Below, piece after piece: positions 33,954-62,286 of a stretch of 64,000 nucleotides of DNA. Every line of letters starts with the position of its first letter. Within the stretch, counting starts at the first letter, position 1. Origin of the DNA: Kiritimatiellia bacterium (GTDB lineage Bacteria; Verrucomicrobiota; Kiritimatiellia; RFP12; UBA1067); NCBI GenBank assembly GCA_016284515.1, contig JAEEOY010000290.1:1951-65950 (forward strand). The letters are read 5' to 3'. The notes under the pieces are model-generated. The model saw only the letters and a list, made by a program, of their open reading frames with translations. It was not told where the DNA came from and did no database searches. The position numbers were made by a program, and so were the translations under genes.

Positions 33954-33958
33954 CAGAT

Positions 33959-35325: not shown

Positions 35326-35356
35326 ATGTGGCGTAAACTCTTTTAAGGAGGATTAG

Positions 35357-36439: not shown

Positions 36440-36477
36440 GTCCACATGAAACTCAAATTTAAGTAAGGAACCACAAA

Positions 36478-37185: not shown

Positions 37186-37209
37186 GTAAATTCAAGGAGG
37201 TACTGAACG

Positions 37210-37941
37210 ATGAAAAGGCTCCTAATTGCGGCATTTGCCTCGCTGGCCTTCACTGCGCTGGCGGACGGTGAGAATACAAGCTACAGTCCTAATATCGGCG
37301 TAACCGAGATTTCTCCGACTCTGCAGAATACCATCATTCCTGTGAAGTTTACTTCTTTGGCTGGCGGTACTGAGAGAACGATTAAGGCTGTCGATCTGGT
37401 TCATCCTGTCGGCATCCCCTCCGGCACACAGCTCTATGTATTTGTAGATAACAAATACGAGGCGTTTGTTATGGGCACCAACGAATGGGCTCCGCTTACA
37501 ACGACATCTACCTCGGATCCTTCGCTCCATACGGCAGACATTGGACAGGTCGCGGTGGCAGGCACGGCCCTTTGGCTTGTGTTCCCGCAAGCCCCTGCGG
37601 GCACGCAGAAAGTCTACATATATGGAGAAGTTGTTGCCAACCCTACCTCTGCAATCACAGCGGGGGCAAAGGCTACTCCCGTTTCCAACCTTCTCTGTAA
37701 TCCGACAGATTCTGCGGTGGCGATAGGGGAAAAGCTTAGCGGCATTACGCTTGCCAAGGGAGACAAGATCATTCCTATAGGCGCTACTTTTGCCGGTGAG
37801 TATGTCTATTCGGGTTCCGTGTGGTGGCATGTGAATCCCAATGGCACGATCGACAAGGAGAATGTTACCTTGCCTAGTATTCCCGCTAATGGCGGATTTT
37901 GGTTTGTTTCCAAAGGCGGGACCGGGGCAATCAATTGGTGA
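37210..37941 (+). CDS. exported protein, unknown family (P3)
   Basis: AAGGAGG RBS at 37194-37200. Signal peptide MKRLLIAAFASLAFTALA. 243 aa. Ends in ..GTGAINW. Confidence 0.65.
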   Translation: MKRLLIAAFASLAFTALADGENTSYSPNIGVTEISPTLQNTIIPVKFTSLAGGTERTIKAVDLVHPVGIPSGTQLYVFVDNKYEAFVMGTNEWAPLTTTSTSDPSLHTADIGQVAVAGTALWLVFPQAPAGTQKVYIYGEVVANPTSAITAGAKATPVSNLLCNPTDSAVAIGEKLSGITLAKGDKIIPIGATFAGEYVYSGSVWWHVNPNGTIDKENVTLPSIPANGGFWFVSKGGTGAINW

Positions 37942-37982
37942 TTGTTGGATTGCAGTTGAATTCTTACTCAAAACTAAAACTA

Positions 37983-37991
37983 TGTTATAAT
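37983..37991 (+). promoter_or_regulatory. internal extended -10 promoter (TGtTATAAT) before the PEP-CTERM gene
   Basis: Exact TGnTATAAT in an AT-rich 60-nt spacer. ATG 38002 is 10 nt downstream. Confidence 0.45.
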
Positions 37992-38001
37992 AACTACACC
38001 T

Positions 38002-38445
38002 ATGAAAAAGACAATTTTTGCATTAGGTTTGATGGCCGCACTTGTGGCTAAAGCAGACTACCTTTATTGGATGGTGGATGATGCCGCGTCTAGTGACTAC
38101 AACTGGACTTCTGCGACGATCTATCAGGATACATCTCCTTTGGCGAGTGCGACATCCGATGACTTTGATGTTATTGGATATAGTACGGCCTCGCTAAATC
38201 CAGGATATGATGTGGCAACCTACTACATTGAGCTGTATAATGGGAGTACTCCTGTGGCAAAAGCTTCGCTGGGTTATAATGACATCAAGAACAATATTTT
38301 CACGGACAACTCTATGGGGATTCCCACAAGAATGCCGTTTGTTGCTCCTGCAGGTTCCTTCCAGGCGGTTCCTGAGCCGACGAGTGGGCTGTTGTTCCTC
38401 GTGGGTGGAATGCTTCTCGGGCTGCGGCGCAAGCGCCGCGTCTGA
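38002..38445 (+). CDS. small exported PEP-CTERM protein (P4)
   Basis: Signal peptide MKKTIFALGLMAALVAKA. C-terminal VPEPTSGLLFLVGGMLLGLRRKRRV (38368-38442) is the PEP motif, a TM helix and a basic tail, i.e. an exosortase sorting signal. Confidence 0.85.
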   Translation: MKKTIFALGLMAALVAKADYLYWMVDDAASSDYNWTSATIYQDTSPLASATSDDFDVIGYSTASLNPGYDVATYYIELYNGSTPVAKASLGYNDIKNNIFTDNSMGIPTRMPFVAPAGSFQAVPEPTSGLLFLVGGMLLGLRRKRRV

Positions 38446-38475
38446 GCGTGGTTTGGTGTTCATTGTGTGTGCAAA

Positions 38476-38508
38476 CGGCCGGGGGAAACCTCGGCCGATT
38501 TGCTTTTG
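38476..38508 (+). terminator. rho-independent terminator of the four-gene operon
   Basis: 9-bp stem CGGCCGGGG/CCTCGGCCG with a GAAA tetraloop, followed by ATTTGCTTTTG. Confidence 0.7.
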
Positions 38509-38621
38509 TGGCAACTAGCGCGTACATCGAGCGGATGTGAACGAGAATTACCTCGCGAGGTGCCCCATGTCTGCCGCAAGTCGCTAGTTGGATGTGGCGC
38601 CGTGCAGAGGCGCGGCGGATA

Positions 38622-38630
38622 TGGTATAAT
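38622..38630 (+). promoter_or_regulatory. extended -10 promoter (TGGTATAAT), leaderless-type
   Basis: ATG 38638 is 7 nt downstream and there is no SD. Confidence 0.55.
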
Positions 38631-38637
38631 TCTCACA

Positions 38638-38931
38638 ATGGGATATCTGACAGAGACGGCGGAGGGAGTGATCCTCAATGTGCGCGCGCAGCCGCGTTCC
38701 TCGAAGGCGGGGATCGACGGGCTTCTCGGCGACGCGGTGAAGGTGCGCATAAAGTGCGCGCCGGTGGACGGCAAGGCCAACAAGGAGCTTGTGGAGACGC
38801 TGGCCGACGAGTTCGGCATAGCGAAGTCGTCCGTCGTCTTCAAGAGCGGCGAGACTTCGAAGCAGAAGCGGCTGCTCCTGCGCGGCGTATCCGCCGCGGA
38901 CGTGGAGAGGAAGCTTAAGGGGGAAATATGA
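38638..38931 (+). CDS. yggU: DUF167/YggU-family protein (UPF0235)
   Basis: GVILNVRAQPRSSKAGIDG..VKVRIKCAPVDGKANKELVETLADEFGIAKSSV is the typical YggU pattern. The track ORF 38467 is over-extended at its 5' end. Confidence 0.85.
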   Translation: MGYLTETAEGVILNVRAQPRSSKAGIDGLLGDAVKVRIKCAPVDGKANKELVETLADEFGIAKSSVVFKSGETSKQKRLLLRGVSAADVERKLKGEI

Positions 38932-40280
38932 CAGAAAACGCAGATTCCGTGAAGCCGAGTGGCTTCGCGCTTATTCCGTTTGCCGTGTTCGCGGCGTTCT
39001 ACGTCGGGCTTTCGCTCTATGCCGACCACCTTGGCTTCGAGATGCCCTGGTACAAGGTCTCGATGCCAGTCGCGTTCGTCGTTGCGTCCGCAGTTTCCCT
39101 CATCATCGGACGCCGCCGCACGCTCGACGAGAAGGTCGAGATATATGCGCGCGGCATGGGCGAGCCGAACATCATGATCATGTGCCTCATCTTCATCCTC
39201 GCCGGAGCGTTCGCGACCATCGCGAAGGGCTCGGGGGCCGTGGATGCCGCGGTGACGATCGCGCAGTCGCTCGTCCCCGCGAAGCTCATGGTCGCAGGCG
39301 TATTCCTCGTCTCGTGCCTCATCTCGCTCGCGATCGGCACGTCGTGCGGCACAATCGCCGCGGTGACGCCCATCGCGCTCGGATTCGCCGGTCCGCTCCA
39401 GCTCAATCCTGCGCTCCTCATGGGCGCGGTAGTGGGAGGCGCGATGTTCGGCGACAACCTGTCGATGATATCCGACACAACGATCGCCGCGACGCGCACG
39501 CAGGGCGTGAGGATGAGGGACAAGTTCCTCGCCAACGGGCTTATAGCGTCCCCTGCCGCTCTCGTCGCGCTGTTCCTCTACGCGATGTCCGGCTCCGCCG
39601 CCGGCGTTGTCGAGGCGCCGGCGGTCACGTGGCAGCACGTGGTGCTCATCATGCCGTACGTGCTGGTCCTTGCTCTCGCCCTCGCCGGGTTCAACGTGAT
39701 GGCGCTGCTCTTCTCCGGAACGGTGCTCTCGGCGGTGATAGGCGGCGCGTTCGGCAAGTTCGCGTTCTTCGACGCGATGGACCTTCTCGGCAAGGGCACT
39801 CTCGGCATGGGCGAGACGCTCATCGTCGCGCTTCTCGCGGGAGGGCTTTTCAGGTCCGTGCAGGCGAACGGCGGCGTACTGTGGCTCACGGACAGAATCG
39901 CGAAGGTCATCCGCGGACCTCGCACGTGCGAGCTCGGCGTGTTTTTCCTTGTTGCGGCGGTAAACTGCTTCACGGCGAACAACACCGTCGCGATCGTGAT
40001 CGCGGGTCCGATTGCGAAGGAGTGCGCGGATAAGTTCAAGGCGGAGCCGGTGCGCATCGCGTCCGTCCTTGACACAGCGTCGTGCGTCGTGCAGGGTCTC
40101 ATCCCCTACGGCGCGCAGATACTTATCGCCATGGGCGTTGCGAAGGGGCTCGACATGAGGGTCGACTCGCTTGCGCTTCTCAAGTGCCTCTACTACCAGC
40201 CTCTCCTGGCGCTTGTGGTCTTTGCGTCGATGGTGTTCTCTGGACGCCGCTTCAAGTCTCCGATCCCGCACGCCAGCTGA
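38928..40280 (+). CDS. nhaC: Na+/H+ antiporter NhaC-family membrane transporter
   Basis: ATGA start/stop overlap with yggU. Polytopic. IGTSCGTIAAVTPIALG and GDNLSMISDTTI resemble NhaC-family conserved segments. Confidence 0.65.
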   Translation: MTENADSVKPSGFALIPFAVFAAFYVGLSLYADHLGFEMPWYKVSMPVAFVVASAVSLIIGRRRTLDEKVEIYARGMGEPNIMIMCLIFILAGAFATIAKGSGAVDAAVTIAQSLVPAKLMVAGVFLVSCLISLAIGTSCGTIAAVTPIALGFAGPLQLNPALLMGAVVGGAMFGDNLSMISDTTIAATRTQGVRMRDKFLANGLIASPAALVALFLYAMSGSAAGVVEAPAVTWQHVVLIMPYVLVLALALAGFNVMALLFSGTVLSAVIGGAFGKFAFFDAMDLLGKGTLGMGETLIVALLAGGLFRSVQANGGVLWLTDRIAKVIRGPRTCELGVFFLVAAVNCFTANNTVAIVIAGPIAKECADKFKAEPVRIASVLDTASCVVQGLIPYGAQILIAMGVAKGLDMRVDSLALLKCLYYQPLLALVVFASMVFSGRRFKSPIPHAS

Positions 40281-42285: not shown

Positions 42286-42294
42286 TGGTATAAT
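42286..42294 (+). promoter_or_regulatory. extended -10 promoter (TGGTATAAT) after a T-tract
   Basis: Exact TGnTATAAT. 48-nt leader to ATG 42343. Confidence 0.5.
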
Positions 42295-47640: not shown

Positions 47641-47670
47641 TTGACATACATACCCGAAGGTATGTATAAT
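47641..47670 (+). promoter_or_regulatory. sigma70 promoter with embedded TetR-type palindromic operator
   Basis: TTGACA (47641-47646), 18 nt, TATAAT (47665-47670). Palindrome ATACATACC-cgaa-GGTATGTAT (47646-47667) spans the spacer and the -10. ATG 47681 is 10 nt downstream. Confidence 0.65.
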
Positions 47671-47680
47671 ATGCGTTCAA

Positions 47681-48298
47681 ATGGCTCGTAAAAGGAAAGA
47701 GGACGCAGAGAAGACGCGCACGAGGATACTCGCGAGCGCGCTCTCGCTTTTTGCGAAAAAGGGCTACGAGCACACGACGTTCACCGACATCGCGGCGCGG
47801 CTGAAGATGACGAAGGGTGCGGTCTACTGGCATTTCGAGTCGAAGGAGGCGCTCCTCATCGCGCTCGTCGACGAAATGCTCGAGAAGTTCACGCGCCAGA
47901 CCGAGGCGATCATGCCGAAGGACGAGCTCACGTTCCTCGCGGTGTCGGACATGATGGTCGAGAACGCGAGGCTCGTGGTGGACGACGCGTGGGGCCGGGC
48001 GTTCTTCATGCTGATGAGGACGCAGATCCGCTGGGGCGAGGAGTCGATGCACGGGGTGCGCGAGGAGCTCCTCACCAACCAGCGGTTCGGTCCGTGGCAC
48101 GCGTTCATCCGCGCCGTCGAGAACGACAAGGCCGCTGGGCGCGTGCGTCCCGACGTGGACGCGACGGAGGTAGCCAACATCTGCGTCTCCGTGTGGGACG
48201 GGATGGTGCAGGGCAGGATAGACGGATTTCTGCGCACGGACATGTGCCTCACGATACGGCATGCGTTCGACGCGGTATGGGGATACATAAAGGCTTGA
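47681..48298 (+). CDS. TetR/AcrR-family transcriptional repressor
   Basis: N-terminal HTH TRTRILASALSLFAKKGYEHTTFTDIAARLKMTKGAVYWHFESKEAL. Confidence 0.9.
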   Translation: MARKRKEDAEKTRTRILASALSLFAKKGYEHTTFTDIAARLKMTKGAVYWHFESKEALLIALVDEMLEKFTRQTEAIMPKDELTFLAVSDMMVENARLVVDDAWGRAFFMLMRTQIRWGEESMHGVREELLTNQRFGPWHAFIRAVENDKAAGRVRPDVDATEVANICVSVWDGMVQGRIDGFLRTDMCLTIRHAFDAVWGYIKA

Positions 48299-48335: not shown

Positions 48336-49568
48336 ATGTCCGAAAACAACGAGAAGAGCACGGGATCCGCGATTGGGTCCATCATCGGGACGATTGTCCT
48401 CGCGGCGGTCTGCGTCGCGGGCGGATGGATAGCGAAGGACATGTGGCCGAAGGGCGACGGCGGCGCGGCGGCCGCGCAGGCCGCGAAGCTCGCTGCGATG
48501 GCGGCGATGCAGCAGACCGTCGCTGTCACGAACGCGGAGATGCGCGTCTACAACCTCCCCGAGAGGTTCGTCGCGCACGCGGAGGCGGTGCAGGAGGTCG
48601 ATCTCCTTCCGCAGATCGACGGATACGTCAGGGAGATCAAGTTCAAGGAAGGCGACGTCGTTAAGGAGGGGCAGGTCCTCTACGTGATCGACGACGAGCG
48701 CTACCAGGCGGTCGCCAACCAGCGCAAGGCCGACCTCGCGGCGGCCGAGGCAGAGGCGCGCAGGGCGGAGCGCTACTTCGAGCGAATGGAGAAGGCGGAC
48801 GAGCGCGGCATCACGCAGCTCGAGCGCGACAACGCGGAGGCTGCGGCGGAGAAGGCGAAGGCCGCGGTCCTCCAGGCGAAGGCGAACCTCGTCGTCGCGG
48901 AGTACGACCTCAAGAAGACCACGGTGTTCGCTCCGATCTCCGGGCAGATCGGCAAGTCGTCCGCCCACGTCGGCGACTATGTCGCGCCGTCGAAGGGCGC
49001 GCTCGCGAAGATCGTGCAGATCGACCCGATCCGCGTCTCGTTCCCGCTCACCGACCGCGCCTACATCGCGTGGCGGCAGGCGCAGCGCGAGGGGAAGGAC
49101 TATGCGTTCCGCATGAGGCTCATCCTCCCCGACGGAAGCGAATACGACCGCGAGGGCGTGTGGGACTTCGACGACAACCAGATGTCTCGCGAGACGGCGT
49201 CGATCATGATGCGCCTCAGGTTCCCGAACCCGGAGCGCCTGCTCATTCCGAACAGCTACGTGACGCTCCTCACCGACTACCAGGAGCCCCCGAGCTATCC
49301 GTCCGTCCCGCAGCAGGCGCTTGTCGACCTTCCCGGCGGGAACCAGGGCGTGTGGATCCTGAAGGACGACATGACGGTCGAGCAGCGTCCCGTGGAGACG
49401 AAGGAGGCGTTTGGCGGATGGACCCCGCTCGTGAAGGGCGTGAAGGAAGGCGAGCGCGTCGTCATCTCCGGCATCTCCAAGCTCGGTCCCGGCGTGAAGG
49501 TCGCGCTCGTCCAGCCGACCTCCAACGACGACATCAACGCGAACCACAAGTCCCCGATCGAGGAGTAG
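48336..49568 (+). CDS. efflux RND transporter periplasmic adaptor subunit (MFP)
   Basis: N-terminal TM, then FKEGDVVKEGQVLYVIDD (lipoyl-like), a coiled coil, VFAPISGQIGKS and C-terminal beta-barrel segments. Confidence 0.88.
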   Translation: MSENNEKSTGSAIGSIIGTIVLAAVCVAGGWIAKDMWPKGDGGAAAAQAAKLAAMAAMQQTVAVTNAEMRVYNLPERFVAHAEAVQEVDLLPQIDGYVREIKFKEGDVVKEGQVLYVIDDERYQAVANQRKADLAAAEAEARRAERYFERMEKADERGITQLERDNAEAAAEKAKAAVLQAKANLVVAEYDLKKTTVFAPISGQIGKSSAHVGDYVAPSKGALAKIVQIDPIRVSFPLTDRAYIAWRQAQREGKDYAFRMRLILPDGSEYDREGVWDFDDNQMSRETASIMMRLRFPNPERLLIPNSYVTLLTDYQEPPSYPSVPQQALVDLPGGNQGVWILKDDMTVEQRPVETKEAFGGWTPLVKGVKEGERVVISGISKLGPGVKVALVQPTSNDDINANHKSPIEE

Positions 49569-49636
49569 TCTAAAGCATAAAACACCATGAACGGCGACAT
49601 CAAGGCGTACGCGACGCTTGCGGCTTAATTTGCAAC

Positions 49637-52186
49637 ATGGTTCAGACATTCGCATATCCGTTGTCACTCCGCGAGGAGGAGCTGAAAAACAAAGTCGCAG
49701 CCGACTGGTTCGGCGCGTTCGACTGCACACGCATAATCGGGAACATCGACTTCTGCGTCGACCTCCCGGCGACCGAGCTGGCACTCGGCTATGACGCGGA
49801 GCCCATTCTGTGGGCGGAGGCAAAGGCCGGAAACAAGAAGGACATCGTAGCCAGTTTCGTGCAGCTTATCCTGACCATCGGCGGAGGGCACACGGCGGAC
49901 AGGAATCTCCCTCCTCACTTTCTCGGCGCATTCGACGCGGAGAAGATCGCGTTCATCCCATACAATGCCGTGTTAGGCGTTCTCGGGAAGAACGACTTCG
50001 ACTGGACGGTCGCACCGAGCGACCACGAGTCAAAGGAGTTCAAGGAACTCTACACGCTCGCAAAGGGCGTGATAGAGCGTGAGAAGTTGCTGTTCAGATA
50101 TGCGGAGGACGGCGATATTCTGCGGCGGTTCATCAAGTCCAACTTCAAGTCGGGACGCCGCGACATCTCGAAGATACTAATCAACAAGAACAACTTCACG
50201 CACATCTATCGGCAGTGGCGGGAAATCGTCATGCCGTTCATCGACGCGCCGTGGGACGTGCTGAAGAAGAAGTACAACATCTACGACCGGGACTTCTATC
50301 TCGCCGAGATGAACATCGACGACAACGGAACGACCGACATCGCCGACGATCGCGTCGCCAACGACTTCTACATCACGTTCGACGCGAGATCCACGACGCC
50401 GTATACCGTGAAGCGCAAGAACGAGGACGATTTGTTCAATATCCTTGCCTTCGGGTTCAAATCCGGCGGACTCGATGCGTACGCGGAATTCTGGCGCCGT
50501 TACAAGCGTCCGCCGCGCAAAGACTACTGGAACTTCATCGTGAACCGTCTCGACCTCCTTGTGCCGCAGGACGTGCGCGAGCGCAAGGGCTCGTTCTTCA
50601 CGCCGAAAAAATGGGTGGAGCTGTCGCAGCACTATCTCGAGCTGGCGCTTGGCGAAAACTGGCAGGACGAGTATTACGTCTGGGACTGCTGCGCCGGTAC
50701 GGGGAACCTCCTCGCCGGACTCACGAACAAATACCGCATCTGGGCGTCGACCTTGGACCAGCAGGATGTCGACGTGATGCGCGAGCGCGCGAAGAACGGC
50801 GCGAACCTGCTTGAAAGCCACATCTTCCAGTTCGACTTCCTCAACGACTCCTTCGACAGACTGCCGAAGGGCCTCAAGGAAATCATCGACGCCCCCGAAA
50901 AACGCCGTAGACTCGTCATCTACATCAACCCACCGTATGCGGAGGCGGGGGACGCGAAGCAAAGATCCCACACCGGTGCGAACAAGACTGATGTCTCCGT
51001 AGTCCATGCAACCTACGATAAGTATCTCGCAAAAATAGGCATCGCCGGACGAGAGTTGTTTGCGCAGTTCCTCATGCGGATCCACGACGAAATTTCAGAG
51101 TGCATCGTCGGGCAGTTCTCAACGTTGAAACATTTGATGGGCCCGAATTTCAAGTTGTTCCGGCAGGCGTTCCATGGTGCGCTGGCGCGATGCTTCATTA
51201 CGCCCGCCGACACATTCGACAATGTGAAAGGCCAGTTTCCAATTGGCTTCTTTGTGTGGCGGCTGGGAGAAAGATCAACTCCGACTTCTACCGATGGCTT
51301 CGCTAACGCTTCGCCTTCTTTAAACGCCGCAGCGGTAGCGGAGGCTTCGGATAAATCGGAGTTAAAAATTAACGGCGTGTTCACCGAGACGACGGCGGAT
51401 GTGTATGATCGCAAGGGGGAGTTTATTGGAACTAAGACGATCCTTGCGTATGACAATGAACGCTCCATAAACGACTGGCTTATTGAGACCCGGAAGAGAC
51501 CGACAGCGCTCAACCTCGGTTTCCTCTCCTGCCGTTCCCATGATGTGCAACACGTTAACGACATTTTCTTCCGAAACGAGAAGTCTCTCATAAAGTCGGC
51601 CCGAGGCTCGTGGATCACCGATGCCAATCTTGTGGAGGCGTCAGTCTATGTAGCGGTTTGCCATAGCATTGATGCTGACTGGCTGAATGATCGCGACCAG
51701 TTCCTTTTTCCTAATGATGGTTGGAAGGATGATGGGAGATTCCATCTTGATGGTATTGTATACACGCTTTTTGCCAACGCCAACAACATCAAGTCCGCCG
51801 ACGGCGTGAACCACTGGATACCGTTTACAGAAGAGGAGGTTGGAGCGAAGGATTGCTTCAAGAGCCACTTCATGAGCGAATATCTCCGCGTCTTTGCGCC
51901 TCTGCGTGAGAAATTATCCCCCGCTGCTACGTCTGTCCTCGATGCCGGGCGCGAGTTGTGGCGGTACTACCACGCGCAGTTAGGCGCGAATCCCGACGCC
52001 TCCTACTACGACATACGGCTTCACTTCCAGGGCGTGACGACCGACGCGCGGGGCAAGGCGAAGATGAACTCCGACAGCAAGGACGCGAAATACACGGAGC
52101 TCATCGGCAATCTACGCGCCGCGATGAAGCGACTTGCGAAAGAGATCGAACCGAAAGTCTACGAATACGGGTTCTTGAAGAAGTAA
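49637..52186 (+). CDS. type IIG-like restriction-modification protein: N-terminal PD-(D/E)xK-like motif plus gamma-class N6-adenine DNA methyltransferase plus C-terminal specificity-like region
   Basis: D53-x7-E61-A-K63 (YDAEPILWAEAK, 49811-49825). Motif X GSFFTPKKWV. Motif I VWDCCAGTGNLL. Motif IV NPPY (50927-50938). ~400-aa C-terminal region. Confidence 0.7.
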   Translation: MVQTFAYPLSLREEELKNKVAADWFGAFDCTRIIGNIDFCVDLPATELALGYDAEPILWAEAKAGNKKDIVASFVQLILTIGGGHTADRNLPPHFLGAFDAEKIAFIPYNAVLGVLGKNDFDWTVAPSDHESKEFKELYTLAKGVIEREKLLFRYAEDGDILRRFIKSNFKSGRRDISKILINKNNFTHIYRQWREIVMPFIDAPWDVLKKKYNIYDRDFYLAEMNIDDNGTTDIADDRVANDFYITFDARSTTPYTVKRKNEDDLFNILAFGFKSGGLDAYAEFWRRYKRPPRKDYWNFIVNRLDLLVPQDVRERKGSFFTPKKWVELSQHYLELALGENWQDEYYVWDCCAGTGNLLAGLTNKYRIWASTLDQQDVDVMRERAKNGANLLESHIFQFDFLNDSFDRLPKGLKEIIDAPEKRRRLVIYINPPYAEAGDAKQRSHTGANKTDVSVVHATYDKYLAKIGIAGRELFAQFLMRIHDEISECIVGQFSTLKHLMGPNFKLFRQAFHGALARCFITPADTFDNVKGQFPIGFFVWRLGERSTPTSTDGFANASPSLNAAAVAEASDKSELKINGVFTETTADVYDRKGEFIGTKTILAYDNERSINDWLIETRKRPTALNLGFLSCRSHDVQHVNDIFFRNEKSLIKSARGSWITDANLVEASVYVAVCHSIDADWLNDRDQFLFPNDGWKDDGRFHLDGIVYTLFANANNIKSADGVNHWIPFTEEEVGAKDCFKSHFMSEYLRVFAPLREKLSPAATSVLDAGRELWRYYHAQLGANPDASYYDIRLHFQGVTTDARGKAKMNSDSKDAKYTELIGNLRAAMKRLAKEIEPKVYEYGFLKK

Positions 52187-52227
52187 TGACCAACGGCAGA
52201 GGACAAGAAAGGCAATAGACAACAACG

Positions 52228-54873
52228 ATGATGGAGACAATCCAGCATGAGTTGATGCGCGCCTGCCTTATGGGGCTGGCGGCGTCGCTTGCCGTACTTG
52301 CGTTTCGGTCGTCGTTTGTTCGTGGCTCGCTTGCACGGCTGACATTGCTGTGGCGTGGCATGACGACATTCGGACGCGCCGCCGTATGCTCGTTTCTTCT
52401 CGTCGGAATCCTTGTTGGCGGAGACAAAACAAACAACGTCAACAATCTGCCGCCGCAGATTATGCAGGGCGGAGGTTCTTTTGAGACAGGATTTACAGGA
52501 TTGGCAGGATTATCAGCGGCGTTGCTTTACCCGCCATCGTCTCCAAATCCTGTTAATCTTGTTAATCCTGTCCAAAACCAATCCCCCGTCCAAACCACTA
52601 GCGAGGACATCGCTCGCGGATATCGTCAGGTCTGTGTTACGGCAAACGAGAGCGTTTCCTACACCATGCCGACAGGCGCGGCCATAGTTGGCAACTGGCA
52701 CAGACGCGGCACATTTAGCGAGTGGATGCGTCTCGATCTTGGCGGCTTCGCCTTTCCTCTTGGTACGAACGAAACAGCGTATTCGGCGTTCTCCGTTTTC
52801 AACGACGGCAAGATACGTCCCACACCGCGCGATGACGCGCACGAGATTTGCGCTGTAGGTGTTCCGATGCTTGCAATGCAGGGCGCGAGCCGCTTCTGGG
52901 TTGCGGAATGTGATGACGGATCGAAGCTTCTCACATGGGAGAATCTCTTCTTGAATGCCGACACGAACACGCCCGTCAACGCGCAGATACAGCTTTATCC
53001 AAACGGCGGCTTCGCGACTCGTTCAAACGATGTCGAGACAGTCTACGAGCGCATAAATCCGCACGACTGGGACGGGGACGGAAAAGAGAACGGAACCGAC
53101 GCGAATCCGACTGTCTGCGACGGCGACTTCTTTGGGGTGGCAAATGCCTTGCCGACAAACGCAAATCCGGATGCCTACTACTGGCTTGATATTTCGGTGA
53201 CTGGGGTCCTTGGCGTTGCATCTATCAGCATCACATGCGATGGACCGAGCGATCTCGGCGACCATGCGATAATTGCGCGAACGAACGAAGTCTGCCATGT
53301 CCCGCTCCTCGCTGGCGCGACATACGATGTGGAAAGTAATTTGCCGATCTCTCTCTCCACCGTATCAAGCGAGTATGCCACGATTGAAACGAATTCTGAG
53401 AGGTCCTTGACCGTGACTCTGCCGCTTGAGTTTTCGTTTGAGCGAATCCAGATGAGAGGGGCGATGGACGCAGTCAACTACGGCGTGTCATCTTCACCAA
53501 TCAATGTCTTCCCGTCCGTCGTCTCCTGTTCGGGTGGATGTTGCTCCCTTCAAGTTGTAGACGGTGCCCTACGTTGGGTTTGCTCGCCGACATGCACATG
53601 CGGAGGCGCGGATCATCTCCTTGATTCGACGGTGCGCTGGGAAGGGTATTCAACGTCGTTCTTTGGGTATGCCGCGTGCGGGTGCGGTGATGATGCGCCG
53701 GATCCAGTGCCGCAGTCTGGGCCGTATGCCGCGTCGGTTTCTGTCGGTTTCAGCAAGAACGCCGTTATCTTCGAGGATGGATATTTGGATCAACCAGGGC
53801 GGTTTGTCCCGCGAAGATCATCGGCGACGGCACTGACGATCCATGCAAACGGTGGGTCTAACGGCGGCGTTCTGTCTGTGTCTTCTACGAACCTTTCAAA
53901 GCTCCAGAAGAATTCCGGCCCCGCATTCCCCGCACAGTCGATTGCAGTTCCCGCTGACCACTCCATCACATACGAGATGAACTATGTGGGATTGTCGGCG
54001 AGTGATACGACAAACGATGTCGTCGTAAGCGCGACGCTGACGGAAAATGGGACGGGCGCGATCTCTACGAGTGCTGCCTCGGCGACGGTGGTAAAGGTTG
54101 AACTGGAATCGCGCAACACTGCATCTGCGAATAAGGATAGGCATCGGCATACATTTGGCGTCTTAGAGGCATTTGATTATCGGCAATATCCTTCTGATGC
54201 TCCCGTAGCATGGTACTTTTGTGAGGGTGAAACAGAGCTGCTACCTTTTTCCCCTGGGTATATGATATTGAATGCGACAACAAATGAGACATCAGGTGGG
54301 CATTGCGAGTTTCGCGCAACATGCGGGGGTGCGGCATATACCAACGATTTTCTAATGGTGATGCCTCGCATTGAGGTCCAAAACCCGCGATGCAACGAAA
54401 ACCAGACAATGATATACGGTGAGGCAGGGTGGTTATTGCTTCATATGGATTTCCTTGTCGGTCCGTTTTATGTTTCATTCATGGGTGTAGATTTTATGGA
54501 GATACCCGACGAAAGCGGAAATTGCCCACATTCCGGTTATTACAACGATGTCACTAAAGGAGGATATCTCTCACATTGTGCGTTGGCTGGAGCGGGAAAA
54601 TGGAATAGAGTTAACGGGAATGGATATTGGTGCCGAGACATGGCAGGTCGCGCTGGTAGGTATGAGGCACCATGGTCTAATGGCTGGAAGGAATGGCCAA
54701 TTCCAATAGGCTGGGGCATGAATCAGATACTGCTGGGACAGTTTGACGCACCTCCAACAACGCAAAAGTTTACGTTGAGTTCGAATGGGACCTTTACAAT
54801 TCGAAAGTTCTGGTTCGAAGCCACCAGGGGCATTTTAGACGTTCTTCCAACCATAAGGAGAGTCGAGGAATGA
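52228..54873 (+). CDS. 881-aa membrane-anchored/exported protein, unknown family (Cys cluster, TSP3-like Ca-binding motif)
   Basis: N-terminal hydrophobic segments (LMGLAASLAVLAF, AAVCSFLLVGILVGG). DWDGDGKENGTDANP is thrombospondin-type-3-like. Cys-rich block CSGGCCSLQVVDGALRWVCSPTCTCGG..ACGCGDD. Confidence 0.6.
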   Translation: MMETIQHELMRACLMGLAASLAVLAFRSSFVRGSLARLTLLWRGMTTFGRAAVCSFLLVGILVGGDKTNNVNNLPPQIMQGGGSFETGFTGLAGLSAALLYPPSSPNPVNLVNPVQNQSPVQTTSEDIARGYRQVCVTANESVSYTMPTGAAIVGNWHRRGTFSEWMRLDLGGFAFPLGTNETAYSAFSVFNDGKIRPTPRDDAHEICAVGVPMLAMQGASRFWVAECDDGSKLLTWENLFLNADTNTPVNAQIQLYPNGGFATRSNDVETVYERINPHDWDGDGKENGTDANPTVCDGDFFGVANALPTNANPDAYYWLDISVTGVLGVASISITCDGPSDLGDHAIIARTNEVCHVPLLAGATYDVESNLPISLSTVSSEYATIETNSERSLTVTLPLEFSFERIQMRGAMDAVNYGVSSSPINVFPSVVSCSGGCCSLQVVDGALRWVCSPTCTCGGADHLLDSTVRWEGYSTSFFGYAACGCGDDAPDPVPQSGPYAASVSVGFSKNAVIFEDGYLDQPGRFVPRRSSATALTIHANGGSNGGVLSVSSTNLSKLQKNSGPAFPAQSIAVPADHSITYEMNYVGLSASDTTNDVVVSATLTENGTGAISTSAASATVVKVELESRNTASANKDRHRHTFGVLEAFDYRQYPSDAPVAWYFCEGETELLPFSPGYMILNATTNETSGGHCEFRATCGGAAYTNDFLMVMPRIEVQNPRCNENQTMIYGEAGWLLLHMDFLVGPFYVSFMGVDFMEIPDESGNCPHSGYYNDVTKGGYLSHCALAGAGKWNRVNGNGYWCRDMAGRAGRYEAPWSNGWKEWPIPIGWGMNQILLGQFDAPPTTQKFTLSSNGTFTIRKFWFEATRGILDVLPTIRRVEE
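52487..52570. repeat. phased heptamer inverted-repeat array inside a CDS (3x CAGGATT ... 3x AATCYTG, 9-nt period)
   Basis: CAGGATT at 52487, 52496 and 52505. AATCCTG, AATCTTG and AATCCTG at 52546, 52555 and 52564. The 25-nt arms are 21/25 complementary across a 34-nt spacer. 84 nt is exactly 28 codons. Confidence 0.7.
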
Positions 54874-55673
54874 AGAGGAAATTGATAGTGGCCGCCGGAA
54901 TGGTTGTTGCGGTGGTTGGCGGAGTGACGGGCACGGCGCTTTGCCTGTCGCGCTGTCTATCCGTTTCATTTGAATGTCGGGTCGATTTTCTTTATGAGTT
55001 CGACAGGCCGTTCAAGGATGTTCCGGGGCGCGGAACACTCAATGCTGACGAGAGCAATCGTAACTCCCGATATGAGAGTATTTTAGATGACTTCAGGCGC
55101 GATATGCTATTTTGCGCGTCTAAAGACGGGATCATTAGGTGTCAGCGAGACTCGGCCTTTCAGGGCGAACCTGATTCGCGTATCACGGCTGTACTCTCGT
55201 CGGTTCGTCTCGATGTCACAGGAATGCCGAGCACTAACTTCGTATATCCGTGCAGGCTTGTCCTGTCTGATGGCGACAGGAGGGCCCTTGATGTGTATGC
55301 ACGTTTTTGCATGGATAAGGTCAAGGAGCAATTGGAAGAGGAGAACATGATTTCGATTGGCAGGGGTACAACAAGAGAGTTTCAGGTGTTAAAAAAGTCC
55401 GAGAAGAAGATAGAAGAACTCGAGAAAGCCATTGTAAAAGGCGAGGTCTCTCCATCTGTGAAGAATGAGTTGCGTAATGAGAGACGGACTGTCGATGAGA
55501 TGAAAAAGAAGATTGAAGAGATCAAGGAGTTAGTGTTGTCAACGGGCGGGCGGCGTATAATCTATGAGACGCCGCCGGAGATATCGTGGGTTATCCGGCG
55601 CAAATCACGGAAACCCTCGGCTGCCGTGGGCGATATGGCGCATTCACCAGTCTCATCCGAGGAGATGAAATGA
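54870..55673 (+). CDS. N-terminally anchored coiled-coil protein, unknown family
   Basis: ATGA overlap with the upstream stop. AAGGAG at 54855-54860. TM segment LIVAAGMVVAVVGGVTGTAL. Charged coiled coil KKSEKKIEELEKAIVKGE..DEMKKKIEEIKEL. Confidence 0.6.
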   Translation: MKRKLIVAAGMVVAVVGGVTGTALCLSRCLSVSFECRVDFLYEFDRPFKDVPGRGTLNADESNRNSRYESILDDFRRDMLFCASKDGIIRCQRDSAFQGEPDSRITAVLSSVRLDVTGMPSTNFVYPCRLVLSDGDRRALDVYARFCMDKVKEQLEEENMISIGRGTTREFQVLKKSEKKIEELEKAIVKGEVSPSVKNELRNERRTVDEMKKKIEEIKELVLSTGGRRIIYETPPEISWVIRRKSRKPSAAVGDMAHSPVSSEEMK

Positions 55674-56182
55674 GTAGACTGAAATCTTATTTATTCGCTC
55701 CTGCTGCCTTGCTGTGCGCGCTTGCCATGCCGCTCTCTCTCTTGGCTGTGCGGACCGTTGCGCTGCCGTCGCTGCCGACAGGGGAACTGCCCAACAGCGA
55801 GGTCGTGACGAACATTGCGCTTGACGTCAATTCCGAAAGGCTCATTTGCCTGACTTTTTCTCTTGAGCTGGACGCGAGCACGTCGAACGGAGTCTCGATC
55901 GCCGTAGGCGCGGCTGCGGGAGAAACACTGATGCTGGAAGAGGCGGATTTCGAGTGGGGCTACGACTGCGGGAAATGGTTCTACGCCGACACAGCGACCG
56001 GCGAAGTCGAGGAGTGGACAGATGTCTTCACTGGGAGGGTTTCGCGGACATTGTCAATCGCTGGCTGCGACTTCAATCCACTGTGGAATCGACTTAAGAT
56101 CACAAAGCGGGGGACGGGCGATATCGAGATAGATTCGTCGTTGACCGTCGAGAACAAGAAATTTTCAATCAGGCTGCGCTGA
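55670..56182 (+). CDS. small exported protein, unknown family, ending in the KFSIRLR tail
   Basis: ATGA overlap with the upstream stop. Signal peptide MSRLKSYLFAPAALLCALAMPLSLLA. 170 aa. The track ORF 55586 is over-extended. Confidence 0.6.
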   Translation: MSRLKSYLFAPAALLCALAMPLSLLAVRTVALPSLPTGELPNSEVVTNIALDVNSERLICLTFSLELDASTSNGVSIAVGAAAGETLMLEEADFEWGYDCGKWFYADTATGEVEEWTDVFTGRVSRTLSIAGCDFNPLWNRLKITKRGTGDIEIDSSLTVENKKFSIRLR

Positions 56183-56184
56183 TT

Positions 56185-56193
56185 TGATATAAT
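56185..56193 (+). promoter_or_regulatory. extended -10 promoter (TGaTATAAT) driving the RND gene from the island edge
   Basis: Starts 3 nt after the island's last stop codon. ATG 56207 is 13 nt downstream. Confidence 0.5.
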
Positions 56194-56206
56194 AAGAGGC
56201 ACAATC

Positions 56207-59200
56207 ATGAAATTATCGTTAAGAAAATCCATTGACGAGATAAAGACGTTCTCGAGGATCTTCGTGGAGCGTCCGCGCTTCGCGATGGTCATCGCGATCG
56301 TGCTGTCCATGGCCGGCACGATGTCGATCTTCAACCTGCCCGTCACGCAGTATCCGCGCGTGACGCCTCCTTCGATACAGGTGAGCTACAACTATCCGGG
56401 CGCAAACGCGAAGGAGGTGCTGAACACCGTCGCGATGCCGCTCGAGGACGAGGTGAACGGCGTGGACGACATGCTCTACATGACGGGCCAGTGCGGCGAC
56501 GACGGAAGCTACTCGCTCAACGTCTCGTTCGAGGTCGAGTCTGACCGCGACATGGACCAGGTCAAGGTGCAGAACCGCGTCGTGCAGGCGGAGCCGAAGC
56601 TCCCCGCGGAGGTCAGACAGCTCGGCGGACGAATCCGCGCGCAGAACTCCGACATGCTCGGCTTCATCGCGGTACGCTCGCCGAACGGGACGCTCTCGCG
56701 CCTGCAGATATCCGACTACATCTACGCTAACATCCAGCCGGTGCTCCTGCGAGTCCCGGGCGTGGGCGACGCGACGGTGTACGGTCCGAAGCTCTCGATG
56801 CGCGTCTGGCTCGACCCCGCGCGCATGGCCGCGCAGGGAATGAACACCGAGGAGGTGATGGCGGCGGTCTCGAAGCAGAACATCCAGGCCTCGCTCGGAT
56901 CCGTCGGCGCGGCGCCCACGGGCGGACACGCCGCGTGGACGATGTCGCTCCTCGCGAAGGGACGCCTCATGTCCGCGAAGGAGTTCGACGACATCGTCGT
57001 GCGGCGCGACGCGAACGGAGGCGTCGTGCGCCTGAAGGACATCGCGCGCACGGAAATCGGCGAGCAGAACTACATGTTCACCGGACAGCTCAACGGCGGG
57101 AACGCCGTCTCGATCGCTCTCCAGCAGAAGCCGGGCGCGAACGCCATCGCGACGATGAAGGCGATACGCAAGGCGATGGCGCAGCTCGAGGAGGCGTTCC
57201 CGGACGACCTCGAGTGGGTCATCCCCTACGATGCGACGGACTACGTGAGCACGTGCATCGACGAGATCGTGTACACGCTGCTCATCACGTTCGGACTCGT
57301 CGTGCTCGTCTGCTACCTGTTCCTGCAGGACTGGCGCGCGACGCTGATTCCGTGCCTCACCATCCCCGTGTCGCTTTCCTCGACGTTCATCCTGATGGCC
57401 TTCCTCGGCTACTCGATCAACATCCTCACTCTGTTCGGACTCGTCCTCGCGATCGGCGTCGTGGTAGACGACTGCATCGTCGTGGTGGAGCGCGTCCAGT
57501 TCCTCATCGAGACGCGCGGCCTCAACTCGAAGGAGGCGGCGATCCAGGCGATGAGCGACGTGACCTCCGCCGTCATCGCGACGACGCTCGTCCTTCTCGG
57601 CATCTTCGTCCCCGTCGGCTTCATGAGCGGCATCACCGGACGCATCTACCAGCAGTTCTCCGTGACGCTCTCCGCTGCGGTCTGCTTCTCGACCGTGTGC
57701 GCGCTCACGCTCGCGCCGGCGCTCTGCTCGCTCATCCTGCACGAGGCGAGGCCCTACAAGCACGGACCTCTCGCGTGGTTCAACTGGGCGATCAACTCGT
57801 TCAAGGGACTCTTCGTCAGGCTCGCGAAGTGGCTTGCGTCGCGCATCTTCCTTGCGCTCGCGCTCCTCGTGCTCACGGTCCTGCTGACCGTCCAGATGTT
57901 CCGCTCGACGCAGACGGCGTTCCTCCCCGAGGAGGACCAGTGCGTCGTCTTCGCATCCATGGAGATGCCCGAGGGATCGACCCGCGACCGCACGCGCGAC
58001 GTGTCGCTCCGCGCAGTTGATCTCCTCCTCAAGGTCCCCGAGGTGCGCAGCGTCCTCACGATCACCGGCTTCTCGATGGTCGGCGGACGCGGCGAGAACC
58101 AGTCGATGGTCATCATCGACCTCAAGGACTGGTCGGAGCGCAAGGGCAAGGACCAGAGCGCCGCGGCGATGGTGCAGAAGCTGCAGGCCTACCTCGCGCA
58201 GGTCCCGGAGCCGAACTGGAAGGTGTTCATGCCTCCGGCCATCCCCGGACTCGGCATGACGAACGGAATCAGCGTCGACCTCCAGGACAAGGGCACGGCG
58301 GATCCGATCCGCATGGACGGTGTGAAGAACCGCGTCCTCGCCGAGCTCAACGACAAGACGAAGCATCCTGACATCATGGTCGCGTACTCGGGCTACAACG
58401 CCGTCACGCCGCACCTCCGCTTCAACCTCGACCGCGTGAAGGCCGAGATGTACAAGGTGCCGGTAGCGACGGTCTACTCGACGCTGCAGAACTACCTCGG
58501 CTCGCGCTACGTAAACGACGTCAACCTCGGTACGCAGGTGAACCGCGTGACGGTTCAGGCAGACTGGGACGGACGCGCCACGCCCGAGGCCGTCTCGCGC
58601 CTCTACGTGCGCGGCGAGAACGGGGCGATGGTGCAGATCGGCTCGCTCGGTGACATCACGCGCGAACTCGGTCCGCGCACGGTCTACACGCGCGACAAGT
58701 ACGTCTCGTGCGGCATAACCGTGATGCCGATGCCCGGCGTCGCATCCGGCAAGATCATGAACGACCTCAGGCAGGTCTTCAGGGACGTCCTTCCGGAGGA
58801 CTACGGATACGACTGGGCGGCGCTCTCCTTCCAGGAGGCGCGCAACGAGGGCGGCGCGGCGCCGCTCATCGCGCTCGCGATTCTGTTCGGATACCTCTTC
58901 CTCGTCGCGCAGTACGAGTCGTGGACGATTCCGCTCCCCGTGATGCTCTCGATCTTCGTCGCCGTGTTCGGCGCGCTGTGCGGACTCAAGTGGTTCGGCA
59001 TCTGGATGACGGGCTCGCCGTATCCGCTGTCGATATACGCGCAGCTCGGCCTCGTCCTTCTCGTCGGCCTTGCCTCCAAGAATGCGATCTTGATCGTCGA
59101 GTTCGCGAAGGACAAGCGCGAGAACGAGGGCTACTCGATCGCGGACGCCGCGGGCGCGGCGGCTGGCGAGCGTCTCAGGGCGCTTTTGATGACGGCCTTG

Positions 59201-59434
59201 ACGACGCTCCTCGGCACTCTCCCGATGATGATCGCGACGGGCGCGGGCGCGGCGAGCCGCAACCACCTCGGCACGACCGAGTTCTGGGGCATGTTCGCGT
59301 CCGTGTCGTTCGGAATCCTCCTGGTTCCGGGGCTCTACGCGCTCTTCCAGACGTGGCGCGAGAACGTGAAGCGCTTCTTCGCGTACCTCTCCGCCACGGC
59401 GCTCCGCCGCCGCCAGCTCAAGGCCCGCGCCTGA
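56207..59434 (+). CDS. efflux RND transporter permease (HAE1/AcrB family) with atypical AT-rich 14-codon N-terminal extension
   Basis: 1075 aa, 12-TM pattern. [35 protein letters not shown] and [16 protein letters not shown] are canonical RND segments. Confidence 0.92.
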
Positions 59435-59507: not shown

Positions 59508-60803
59508 ATGAAGCAGATTGGAGTCGGAATACTCGGATTCGGAACCGTCGGCGCAGGAGTCGCCGACGGTCTTCTGAAGCATCGCGACGTCATGGCGAAG
59601 CGCCTCGGCGTCGACATTGTACTCAAGAAGATTGCGGACCTCGACATCACGACGGACCGCGGCATCAGCGTCCCCGAAGGTGTGCTCACGACGGACGCAG
59701 GATCCGTCCTCGCTGACCCCGAGGTGGACATCATCGTCGAGACGATCGGTGGCACGGGGATCGCGAAGACGTTCGTCCTCACGGCGCTCGGCAACGGAAA
59801 GTGCGTCGTCACCGCGAACAAGAAGCTCCTCGCGGAGCACGGACGCGAGATATTCGAGACGGCGGCGAAGAACGACGTCGACATCTACTTCGGCGCGTCC
59901 GTCGGAGGCGGAATCCCGATCATCCGCGTGCTGCGCGAAGGCCTTGCCGGAAACGAGATCGAGTCCATACACGGCATCCTCAACGGAACGTGCAACTACA
60001 TTCTCACGCGCATGGAGAACGAGGGGCTTCCCTTCGACAATGTCCTTAAGGACGCGCAGAAGCTCGGCTACGCGGAGGCCAATCCCTCCCTCGACATCGA
60101 CGGATTCGACACCGCGCACAAGGCGTGCATCCTCGCGGCGCTCGCGTACGGCTTCCAGCCGACGCTCGACCAGGTGCAGGTCGAGGGAATCCGCAACCTC
60201 GCCGGCGCAGACGTGAAGTACGCCGCGGACTTCGGCTACCGCATCAAGCTCCTCGCCGTCGTGGCGAAGGAGGGAGACGAGGTGGAGGTCGGGGTGCATC
60301 CGACGCTCATCCCGTTCTCGCACATGCTCGCCAACGTGAACGACGCGTTCAACGCCGCGTACGTGAAGGGCGACATGTCGGACTACACGATGTACTATGG
60401 ACGCGGCGCGGGCCGCGCGCCGACGGCTTCGACCGTGATCGGCGACATCGGCGACATCGCGCGCAACCTCGCCTACGACGAGACGCGCTATGCGCGCGGC
60501 GTGCCGAACTACGCGGAGGGCAAGGTGCGCCTCCGCGCGGCGGGCGACATCAAGTCGAAGTACTACCTCAGGTTCATGCTCACGGACCGTCCCGGCGCGA
60601 TGGGCGTCGTCGCGTCCGCGCTCGGCAAGCACGGCGTGTCCATCTCCGCGCTGTCGCAGAAGGAGTCGTCCGAGGGCAACCTCCCCGTCCCCGTCGTCGC
60701 GATGACGCGCGTCGCGAAGGCGTCCGACATCGACGCGGCGCTCGAGGAGATCAAGGCCGCCGGCGTCACGGGCGAGGACCCCGTGAAGCTCAGGGTCCTG
60801 TAA
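59508..60803 (+). CDS. hom: homoserine dehydrogenase (with C-terminal ACT domain)
   Basis: GILGFGTVGAGV, VVTANKKLLA, FGASVGGGIPII, GILNGTCNYILT and AQKLGYAEANPSLDIDGFDTAHK are canonical segments. Confidence 0.92.
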   Translation: MKQIGVGILGFGTVGAGVADGLLKHRDVMAKRLGVDIVLKKIADLDITTDRGISVPEGVLTTDAGSVLADPEVDIIVETIGGTGIAKTFVLTALGNGKCVVTANKKLLAEHGREIFETAAKNDVDIYFGASVGGGIPIIRVLREGLAGNEIESIHGILNGTCNYILTRMENEGLPFDNVLKDAQKLGYAEANPSLDIDGFDTAHKACILAALAYGFQPTLDQVQVEGIRNLAGADVKYAADFGYRIKLLAVVAKEGDEVEVGVHPTLIPFSHMLANVNDAFNAAYVKGDMSDYTMYYGRGAGRAPTASTVIGDIGDIARNLAYDETRYARGVPNYAEGKVRLRAAGDIKSKYYLRFMLTDRPGAMGVVASALGKHGVSISALSQKESSEGNLPVPVVAMTRVAKASDIDAALEEIKAAGVTGEDPVKLRVL

Positions 60804-62243: not shown

Positions 62244-62278
62244 CGGCCGCGGTCTTCGGACCGCGGCCGTCAGTTTTT
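62244..62278 (+). terminator. rho-independent terminator after aspartate kinase
   Basis: 11-bp stem CGGCCGCGGTC/GACCGCGGCCG with loop TTCG, followed by TCAGTTTTT. Confidence 0.85.
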
Positions 62279-62286
62279 GGTATAAT
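62278..62286 (+). promoter_or_regulatory. extended -10 promoter (TGGTATAAT), leaderless-type, abutting the terminator U-tract
   Basis: ATG 62293 is 6 nt downstream and there is no SD. Confidence 0.55.

Follow-up and report, generated by a model that had tools for sequence, protein, structure and literature searches.

A four-gene block between the adaptor and pump genes of a tetR-RND efflux operon in an uncultured Kiritimatiellae genome

Introduction

Efflux operons of the AcrAB type combine a TetR-family regulator, a periplasmic adaptor (membrane fusion protein) and an HAE1-type RND permease, with no linked outer-membrane gene. Insertions upstream of RND pump genes, of insertion sequence (IS) elements for example, can supply them with promoters. 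Here we describe an operon of this kind from the genome of an uncultured Kiritimatiellae bacterium of the rumen or gut (Kiritimatiellia bacterium, assembly GCA_016284515.1, contig JAEEOY010000290.1, positions 1,951-65,950 of the forward strand), in which an island of four co-oriented genes, isl1 to isl4 (6,638 bp; 49569-56206), separates the adaptor gene from the pump gene. The whole stretch of 64,000 nt that was analysed is referred to as the window; all coordinates are those of the window and all features of the locus lie on its + strand.

The locus shares its regulator, adaptor and permease, and the absence of a linked outer-membrane gene, with the AcrAB-type operons, as does that of a close relative (locus L044); most Kiritimatiellae relatives, however, do carry a linked outer-membrane gene, and the pump clade adds a conserved N-terminal extension of 14 residues. 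As with promoter provision by IS elements, the inserted DNA places a strong predicted -10 element directly upstream of a formerly TetR-controlled pump, but here the insert is not an IS, the box lies in a junction of 24 nt and read-through from the operon is still possible.

Restriction-modification (RM) genes have been described as units that are mobile and that insert in varied ways (Furuta, Abe and Kobayashi 2010, PMC2853133). The island resembles these units in having a single-chain RM-like gene of atypical composition that occurs in varied contexts and in prophages and that lies inside an operon-like cluster; it differs from them in that neither a long target duplication nor inverted repeats nor a linked integrase was found, and in the presence of a surface module unrelated to RM. 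Flexible genomic islets at recombination hotspots, which are accessory blocks that lack an integrase, lie between conserved core genes and are exchanged through homologous recombination in their flanks, are together with these units the nearest known counterparts. They are similar in their atypical composition, their lack of mobility genes, the varied cargo found at the same junction, the mosaic look of the flanks, and the linkage of one island to different flank alleles. Here, though, the hotspot lies within a coupled operon junction of 7-10 nt and not between operons, the boundaries are gene-exact, and other junctions of the operon vary too (loci L022 and L056), so that the site is not unique. 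Of the features of a classical integrative island or prophage the locus has the deviating composition, whereas no integrase, att repeats or tRNA insertion was found; the arrangement is likewise not that of an integron cassette array, as attC sites would not fit into gene spacings of 41, -4, -4 and 24 nt and there is neither an integrase nor significant structure at the junctions.

Results

The island separates two intact efflux genes. A sequence-only reading of the window had noted that tetR and the adaptor gene are not followed by the pump gene and that four genes lie in between, and both the coordinates and the order are borne out by the list of open reading frames (ORFs) and by profile searches. 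The regulator gene tetR (47681-48298; TetR_N, E 1.8e-17) is followed by the RND periplasmic adaptor gene (48336-49568; RND_mfp TIGR01730, E 6.7e-67, 226 bits against a cut-off of 95), which is intact and whose stop codon forms the left edge of the insert. The pump gene (56207-59434) encodes an intact HAE1-type RND permease of 1075 amino acids that covers positions 1-1020 of the 1021 of ACR_tran (E 1.8e-284) and reaches 1019 bits with TIGR00915 (cut-off 940). From adaptor to pump, the spacing between successive genes is 68, 41, -4, -4 and 24 nt.

For comparison, 55 loci from rumen and gut Kiritimatiellae metagenome-assembled genomes (MAGs) were collected in a scan of species-representative genomes, and seven more through look-ups of orthologous proteins. 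At about 45 distinct loci the adaptor gene ends 4-60 nt before the ATG of the pump gene, typically in the form ...GAGGAGTGA-GGACCAG-ATG, and relatives spanning 70-97% pump identity have near-identical spacers of 7-10 nt. The island proteins were absent by tblastn from all of the fetched relative loci (55 + 7). The closest comparison is with L044, which shares 95-99% nucleotide identity with the window over 44.1-47.8 kb and 59.3-62.2 kb and has the order tetR, adaptor, 10-nt spacer, pump and homoserine dehydrogenase, with neither the island nor an outer-membrane gene. The homoserine dehydrogenase gene of the window (59508-60803; Homoserine_dh of Pfam, E 6.8e-65) belongs to the species backbone, which begins directly after the pump gene; its product has 99% amino acid identity to that of L044, where the gene also directly follows the pump. 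With some 45 empty sites, the syntenic one of L044 among them and none with island genes, these alignments support the supposition of the sequence-only reading that this is a real insertion, and we read the island as an insertion relative to its relatives. The same reading had found no outer-membrane factor gene, and indeed there is no OEP homologue in the 64-kb window. A linked outer-membrane gene is present in most other Kiritimatiellae relatives; since L044 also lacks it, its absence predates the island and is unrelated to it.

Nucleotide homology to the relatives ends at 49566, within the adaptor stop codon, and restarts exactly at 56207, the pump ATG, which implies that the insert replaced the spacer of 7-10 nt and that no coding sequence was lost. 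The proposal made from the sequence, that the island had entered the pump gene at its 5' end, is thereby refuted. It had also been proposed that the first 14 codons of the pump gene (56207-56248) are a chimeric N-terminus donated by the island, with orthologue N-termini named as the place where this might be contradicted. Of 120 orthologues found with the pump protein as query, which are 77-96% identical to it and, where named, come from Kiritimatiellae, 117 begin with the motif MKL[SGPN][LI]R..I[DE].[IL]K[TP], followed by FSR.F[VI]ERPRFA; the three without the extension are truncated gene calls. The extension is also present where the adaptor stop and the pump ATG lie 7 nt apart with no insert, and in L017 the peptide is identical to that of the window, the codons differing at four synonymous positions only. 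The low G+C (GC) content of this segment (31% in the first 42 nt) has its counterpart among 44 distinct orthologous 5' ends, where the mean GC is 0.42 in the first 42 nt against 0.59 in the next 300 nt; the step in GC seen at 56249 thus belongs to the gene family as a whole. As it is conserved across the orthologues, those of operons without an insert included, and is encoded by AT-rich codons throughout, the extension is native. The observation that the canonical N-terminus starts at the step holds in so far as the RND models of Pfam and NCBIfam begin at residue 15-16 of the pump, but the step is not the boundary of the island. On the alignments we regard the extension as an ancestral feature of the pump clade. 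It is cytoplasmic, has the consensus MKLxxRxSIDxIKT and precedes the canonical start, beyond the reach of the models of Pfam and NCBIfam.

The flanks of the island are a mosaic. When the window was painted in chunks of 150 nt against all fetched loci, the best match up to about 47.8 kb was the L044 backbone, after which (from 47800) only 61-77% of positions agree with L044, compared with 99% before, so that the 5' part of tetR belongs to the species backbone and its 3' part to a divergent allele. The segment from 47.8 to 48.4 kb is an orphan allele unlike any fetched locus, and the adaptor gene from 48.4 to 49.57 kb (48400-49566) is of the type found in the uninterrupted operons of L001, L008, L013, L022, L023 and L059, at 93-99% identity. 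The island itself (49.57-56.2 kb) has no match. Within the pump gene, 56351-58750 is of the L003-L007/L020 type at 97-100% identity and the 3' end (58750-59350) of the L001/L008/L010/L062 type, and from about 59.35 kb the L044 backbone returns (about 95% identity from 59286). Pump and adaptor alleles with 93-100% nucleotide identity also occur in MAGs of quite different neighbourhoods, while the syntenic alleles of L044 have 70-77% amino acid identity. Such a distribution suggests that efflux alleles are exchanged often among rumen Kiritimatiellae.

An exact-sequence look-up of isl3 led to two independent contigs, L106 (run SRR11783237; 99.84% identity over 52546-56326) and L107 (JGI 3300041004; 99.5% identity over 53947-56399), in both of which isl4 is joined to the start of the pump gene by the 24-nt spacer of the window; the corresponding look-ups of the adaptor and pump proteins gave no match. 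In L106 the island is identical across 3,744 nt and is then followed by six mismatches in the next 37 nt, within the pump gene, from which it follows that the same island is linked to different pump alleles. The allele switch lies 84 nt into the pump gene, although these are metagenome assemblies and switching by the assembler may contribute to it. In a further assembly, GCA_016648615.1, the gene spacing on two short contigs matches adaptor tail-68-isl1-41-isl2 and isl2-isl3-isl4-24-pump. The recurrence of the right junction in L106 and L107, together with the spacing in GCA_016648615.1, makes an assembly chimera unlikely. All module boundaries within the island coincide with gene ends.

The composition of the island sets it apart from its surroundings, as had been seen by eye in the sequence-only reading. 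The GC content of 49569-56206 is 0.538 against 0.616 for the remainder of the window, and GC at third codon positions (GC3) is 0.74, 0.56, 0.58 and 0.67 for the four genes in order, compared with 0.87, 0.93 and 0.92 for tetR, adaptor and pump. Tetranucleotide analysis agrees: the island is the 6.6-kb window that deviates most in the 64 kb (L1 distance 0.31), the runner-up being at 23-30 kb (0.27). The dip is not unique, further lower-GC tracts being present at 18-30 kb and 35-39 kb of the window, and its left edge is gradual, with a GC of 0.56-0.60 across the first 500 nt, so that the drop which had been described just past a short ORF on the left is in fact a soft boundary.

No integrase, terminal repeats or target-site duplication had been noticed from the letters, and the searches agree: profile scans of the four island proteins detected neither an integrase nor a transposase domain, and a search for direct or inverted terminal repeats, or for a target-site duplication pairing the island ends, found none. 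Rfam and tRNA scans gave nothing inside or beside the island (the only tRNAs of the window are at 33878-34036), and the sole rve-like ORF among the window ORFs scanned (32396-33664) is weak, below the Pfam cut-off and 16 kb from the island. There was no match to the island DNA among the plasmids of PLSDB, and PADLOC, PHROGs and NCBIfam held no meaningful match for the four island proteins. In the literature on efflux in Kiritimatiellae nothing relevant was found.

The left junction spacer (68 nt; 49569-49636) has no homologue in any fetched locus. It holds an ORF of 13 codons (49587-49628), which had been taken for the remnant of a pump start; it bears no similarity to pump starts but has a weak likeness to the 3' end of the adaptor gene, in that a 24-nt tract (49583-49606) resembles the adaptor end ACCTCGAACGACGACATCAACGCG at 20 of 24 nt, a score equalled by one of 500 shuffles. 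This tract may be the relic of an earlier join. As a target duplication it was rejected, as both copies are on the same side of the insert. The two modules of the island meet in an unstructured 41-nt junction (52187-52227), the homology of L067 ending at 52173 and that of L069 starting at 52259. The right junction spacer (24 nt; 56183-56206) is absent from uninterrupted relatives and holds an extended -10 element, TGATATAAT (56185-56193), and a Shine-Dalgarno-like AAGAGG (56194-56199). No significant RNA structure was found at the island junctions, and terminator-like sites are not in excess.

The first island gene, isl1 (49637-52186), encodes a protein of 849 amino acids from a very large, uncharacterised family without a Pfam domain. 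Invariant in 28 homologues are D38...E61-x-K63, DCCAGTGN (350-357) and NPPY (431-434), the latter two corresponding to motifs I and IV of the gamma-class N6-adenine methyltransferases. For the AlphaFold (AF2) model (pLDDT 70, TM ~0.23) the top match in the PDB is BpuSI (E 4e-11), followed by M.BseCI, DrdV, LlaBIII, CamA and MmeI and also by methyltransferases of the HsdM type. In the N-terminal endonuclease region D38, E61 and K63 are invariant, yet residues 32-56 are modelled at a pLDDT below 50. There was no match to isl1 in Pfam, PADLOC or PHROG, none by sequence profile in the PDB at E values up to 10 and none in GenBank phage records; the only profile signal was a weak MADS2 methyltransferase match (E 0.0023), far below the cut-off. 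From the motifs and the model we read isl1 as a putative type IIG/IIL-like RM enzyme or DNA adenine methyltransferase, and it could be a methyltransferase without a nuclease role. It resembles type IIG/IIL enzymes such as BpuSI, MmeI and DrdV in having a single chain of about 850 residues with an N-terminal D...ExK, a central gamma N6-adenine methyltransferase with NPPY and a C-terminal region, but differs in showing no detectable profile similarity to Pfam, PADLOC or the PDB. An 849-aa gene near the pump in L108 was considered as a homologue of isl1 and rejected, the match in length being coincidental.

The isl1 gene alone, with different neighbours each time, has 94% nucleotide identity in L067, 84% in L068 and 79% in L063-66, and as a single-gene unit it is found in at least four contexts at 79-96% identity with its boundaries at gene ends; in L067 the homology is confined to the isl1 gene, which there has TGCTATAAT and, 7 nt further on, the ATG. 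A more distant homologue (46%) lies in an IMG/VR prophage, with a RecT/SbcC module on one side and an integrase and endolysin on the other. By these comparisons isl1 behaves as a separate mobile module.

The remaining three genes form the second module. The product of isl2 (52228-54873; 881 amino acids) is modelled as a membrane-anchored string of Ig-like/macroglobulin-like beta-sandwich domains; in its AF2 model (pLDDT 77) helices at the N-terminus are followed by a disordered linker and by all-beta domains, and the PDB matches are generic multi-Ig proteins. It has 411 homologues and no Pfam domain, the family being met only in Kiritimatiellae-type contigs. Two smaller genes follow, each overlapping the end of the preceding one by 4 nt: isl3 (54870-55673), whose product of 267 amino acids has a hydrophobic segment at its N-terminus and a region rich in Lys and Glu, and isl4 (55670-56182), which encodes a small secreted protein of 170 amino acids, as it also does in L069 and L106. 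No significant family match was found for isl3, which always follows isl2-like genes (L069, L070, L079, L098 and L104), while paralogues of the isl4 type are found on the flanks of isl2-like genes at many loci. Members of the three families occur together in many arrangements across Kiritimatiellae contigs, often in multiple copies and, outside the island, never beside efflux genes. A relative of the module is in L069, with 95% nucleotide identity over 52259-56017, where it lies between an EcoRI-type methylase gene with an isl4-like gene and rarA. Of the 27 loci recovered when metagenomes were scanned with isl2 (best 67% identity), none lay beside efflux genes, and there were no relatives of isl2 in IMG/VR. 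The isl2-isl4 genes are a predicted three-gene cell-envelope module, made up of an Ig-like surface protein, a coiled-coil-like membrane protein and a small secreted protein. Island-type genes have a GC3 below that of their neighbours in every context examined, and low GC thus marks the flexible gene pool of the lineage and not a distant donor.

Methyltransferase-like genes are found directly upstream of isl2/isl4 family genes elsewhere: the EcoRI-type gene in L069 (1-1157), an isl1-like gene in L097 (5765-8059; 28% identity) and an isl1 homologue in L063 (10001-13796; 81%). This could reflect a functional linkage or a shared variable region.

Expression of the pump was considered from both ends of the locus. 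Upstream of tetR there is a sigma-70 consensus promoter, TTGACA-18-TATAAT (47641-47670), with 12 of 12 hexamer matches, which ends 10 nt before the tetR ATG in a region 99% identical to L044 and is likely to be the operon promoter. As the genes are co-oriented and tightly spaced, with no excess of terminators and no folding junctions, read-through to the pump is plausible, and the AAGAGG motif, 7 nt before the pump ATG, would be present on read-through transcripts. The box which the sequence-only reading had pointed out at 56185-56193 is present there, though it was not called in a scan for two-hexamer promoters. Its general form, TGNTATAAT, is found at eight sites of the window where 0.31 would be expected, all of them on the + strand, the other sites being at 13879-13887, 16469-16477, 22433-22441, 37983-37991, 38622-38630, 42286-42294 and 62278-62286. 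Five of the sites end 6-10 nt upstream of an ATG that opens a long ORF, which is the spacing reported for bacterial leaderless transcription (PMC6028130), and this suggests that leaderless transcription may be frequent in this Kiritimatiellae genome. Two pump genes with no adjacent adaptor gene have similar elements, a box ending 8 nt before the ATG in L018 and a full TTGACA-17-TGCTATAAT in L060. The motif enrichment and these boxes make it plausible that TGATATAAT is a real new promoter for the pump, and to that extent the earlier proposal of a promoter donated by the island survives; the N-terminus was not donated with it.

Varied cargo at the same junction was found in other relatives. A metallophosphoesterase gene lies between adaptor and pump in L003-L007, L019, L020 and L055, and an SBF-family (bile acid:sodium symporter) gene of host-like GC in L027, L029 and L042 (at about 9018-10001 in L027), while in L039 (7531-10001) there are Fe/Mn superoxide dismutase, acyl-ACP thioesterase and SBF genes, again of host-like GC. 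In five loci the pump gene has no adaptor gene adjacent to it. Inserts were also seen between the pump and outer-membrane genes of L022 (2.4 kb; 13222-15673) and between tetR and the adaptor gene of L056 (4 kb; 804-4958), so that plasticity is not confined to the adaptor-pump junction. In the loci with the metallophosphoesterase insert (L003, about 9890-10003, and also L004-L007), an ORF of 36 codons encoding a single-pass hydrophobic peptide (MKFFNMLFRMAACVVVAALAVYAGRRLSAIRKEKEK) overlaps with its end the start codon of the pump; its product could be a small pump-associated protein.

Elsewhere in the window, the weak rve-like ORF at 32396-33664 lies just upstream of tRNA-Thr and tRNA-His (33878-34036) and of the RNase P RNA gene (34816-35232), and the lower-GC tract at 35300-39000 encodes small secreted proteins with no family match; this may be another islet. 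Four very large ORFs for secreted proteins (2318, 1630, 1362 and 2081 amino acids) occupy 1984-13855 and 18228-29444, those of 1362 and 2081 amino acids within a 12-kb lower-GC tract (GC3 0.66-0.68). Between these two is a PD-(D/E)XK_9 ORF (22443-23045) with its own TGGTATAAT box.

Discussion

The history that we propose for this locus begins with tetR, adaptor and pump in one operon, in which the 7-10 nt between adaptor stop and pump start would imply translational coupling and which, in this species, would have had no outer-membrane gene. In the lineage of the window the short spacer would then have been replaced by a composite block of 6.6 kb, all of whose genes are in the orientation of the operon, consisting of two modules: a putative type IIG RM-like gene, of a kind also found in prophages, and a three-gene cell-envelope module. 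The block was probably assembled by illegitimate or short-homology joins at gene boundaries, and we infer that homologous recombination within the conserved efflux genes that flank it now carries it from strain to strain. Such recombination in the flanks would explain both the allelic mosaic and the finding of one island with different pump alleles. The pump would probably be expressed by two routes: read-through from the tetR promoter, with translation from its own Shine-Dalgarno sequence, and a new promoter of the extended -10 type within the right junction of 24 nt, by which the pump would be partly uncoupled from TetR and the adaptor. Taken as a whole, a flexible block that replaced the spacer and spread by recombination in its flanks, with the pump served by read-through and a new promoter, is in our view the best explanation of the data, and we hold it with reasonable though not full confidence.

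A number of points weigh against this explanation. The left junction has independent backing from gene spacing alone, on one contig. The comparison data are all metagenome assemblies, and part of the flank mosaic could be strain-switching by the assembler. The assignment of isl1 comes from motifs and a medium-confidence model (pLDDT 70, TM ~0.23), with no sequence-profile match. The distance from the pump box to the ATG is 13 nt, longer than the 6-10 nt seen elsewhere, and RNA initiated there would carry a leader of only some 6 nt, in which the Shine-Dalgarno sequence is missing.

Among the alternatives, the one that fares best is that isl1, alone or with the other genes, is a self-mobile RM unit that inserted itself independently of recombination in the flanks. 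Its occurrence as a single-gene unit in at least four contexts (79-96% identity), with boundaries at gene ends, and its presence in prophages are what might be expected of such a unit, as is the possible duplicated adaptor tail beside it, and RM genes are documented to move in this way (PMC2853133). There are, however, no direct or inverted repeats flanking either isl1 or the island, the duplicated tract is one-sided, and neither the isl2-isl4 module nor the mosaic of the flanks would be explained; we therefore consider it unlikely, while giving it some weight. It could also be imagined that an unrecognised insertion process, integrase-free and exact to gene boundaries, targets the efflux junctions of gut Kiritimatiellae and shuffles leaderless units of the form TGnTATAAT-6-8 nt-ATG, and that the isl1-type enzyme and the Ig-like module form one functional system, but a proposal of this breadth seems to us improbable. 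That the site is a coupled junction of 7-10 nt, and that the boundaries fall exactly at gene ends, deserves notice but is not new in concept.

An assembly artefact, in which no real genome has the island between adaptor and pump, had to be taken seriously, as efflux genes that are 93-100% identical across co-occurring strains and species invite mis-joins, the flanks look mosaic, and contigs of other assemblies break within the adaptor and pump genes. The joins lie, however, between unique island DNA and gene ends and not within shared sequence; the junction of isl4, 24 nt and pump is met again at 99.5-99.8% identity in L106 and L107, from two other data sets, and also in GCA_016648615.1, where the adaptor-tail-68 nt-isl1 spacing recurs as well. 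An artefact is on this evidence very unlikely. Little more can be said for the four genes being an old part of the operon that was deleted in relatives. They are co-oriented with tight, operon-like spacing, and other lineages also carry genes at the junction, but near-identical spacers of 7-10 nt persist across 70-97% pump identity, the GC3 of the island is far below that of its flanks, both modules are about 95% identical in unrelated contexts, and 0 of 27 isl2-like metagenome loci have efflux neighbours, so that we give this ancestral arrangement hardly any credence. Finally, a foreign island that destroyed the original pump start, leaving a stump, and supplied a promoter and a chimeric 14-codon N-terminus is scarcely tenable: the 31% GC of the first 42 nt, their position outside the RND models and the short ORF after the adaptor gene all seemed to favour it, but the extension is found in 117 of 120 orthologues, is AT-rich in 44 5' ends and belongs to a homology that runs from the exact ATG, and the stump is unlike pump starts.

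The replacement of an operon spacer by a flexible block requires no change to current concepts and is best seen as an ordinary flexible-genome event with instructive details. One of these is an annotation trap, in that the AT-rich start of 14 codons in this pump clade is native and yet lies outside the curated RND models. If the new promoter is real, expression of the pump would be partly freed from control by TetR. More generally, the locus provides a clean comparative case in which an uncultured gut lineage gains RM-like and surface genes inside a translationally coupled efflux operon without mobility genes, and in which the conserved pump genes appear to act as the recombination arms.

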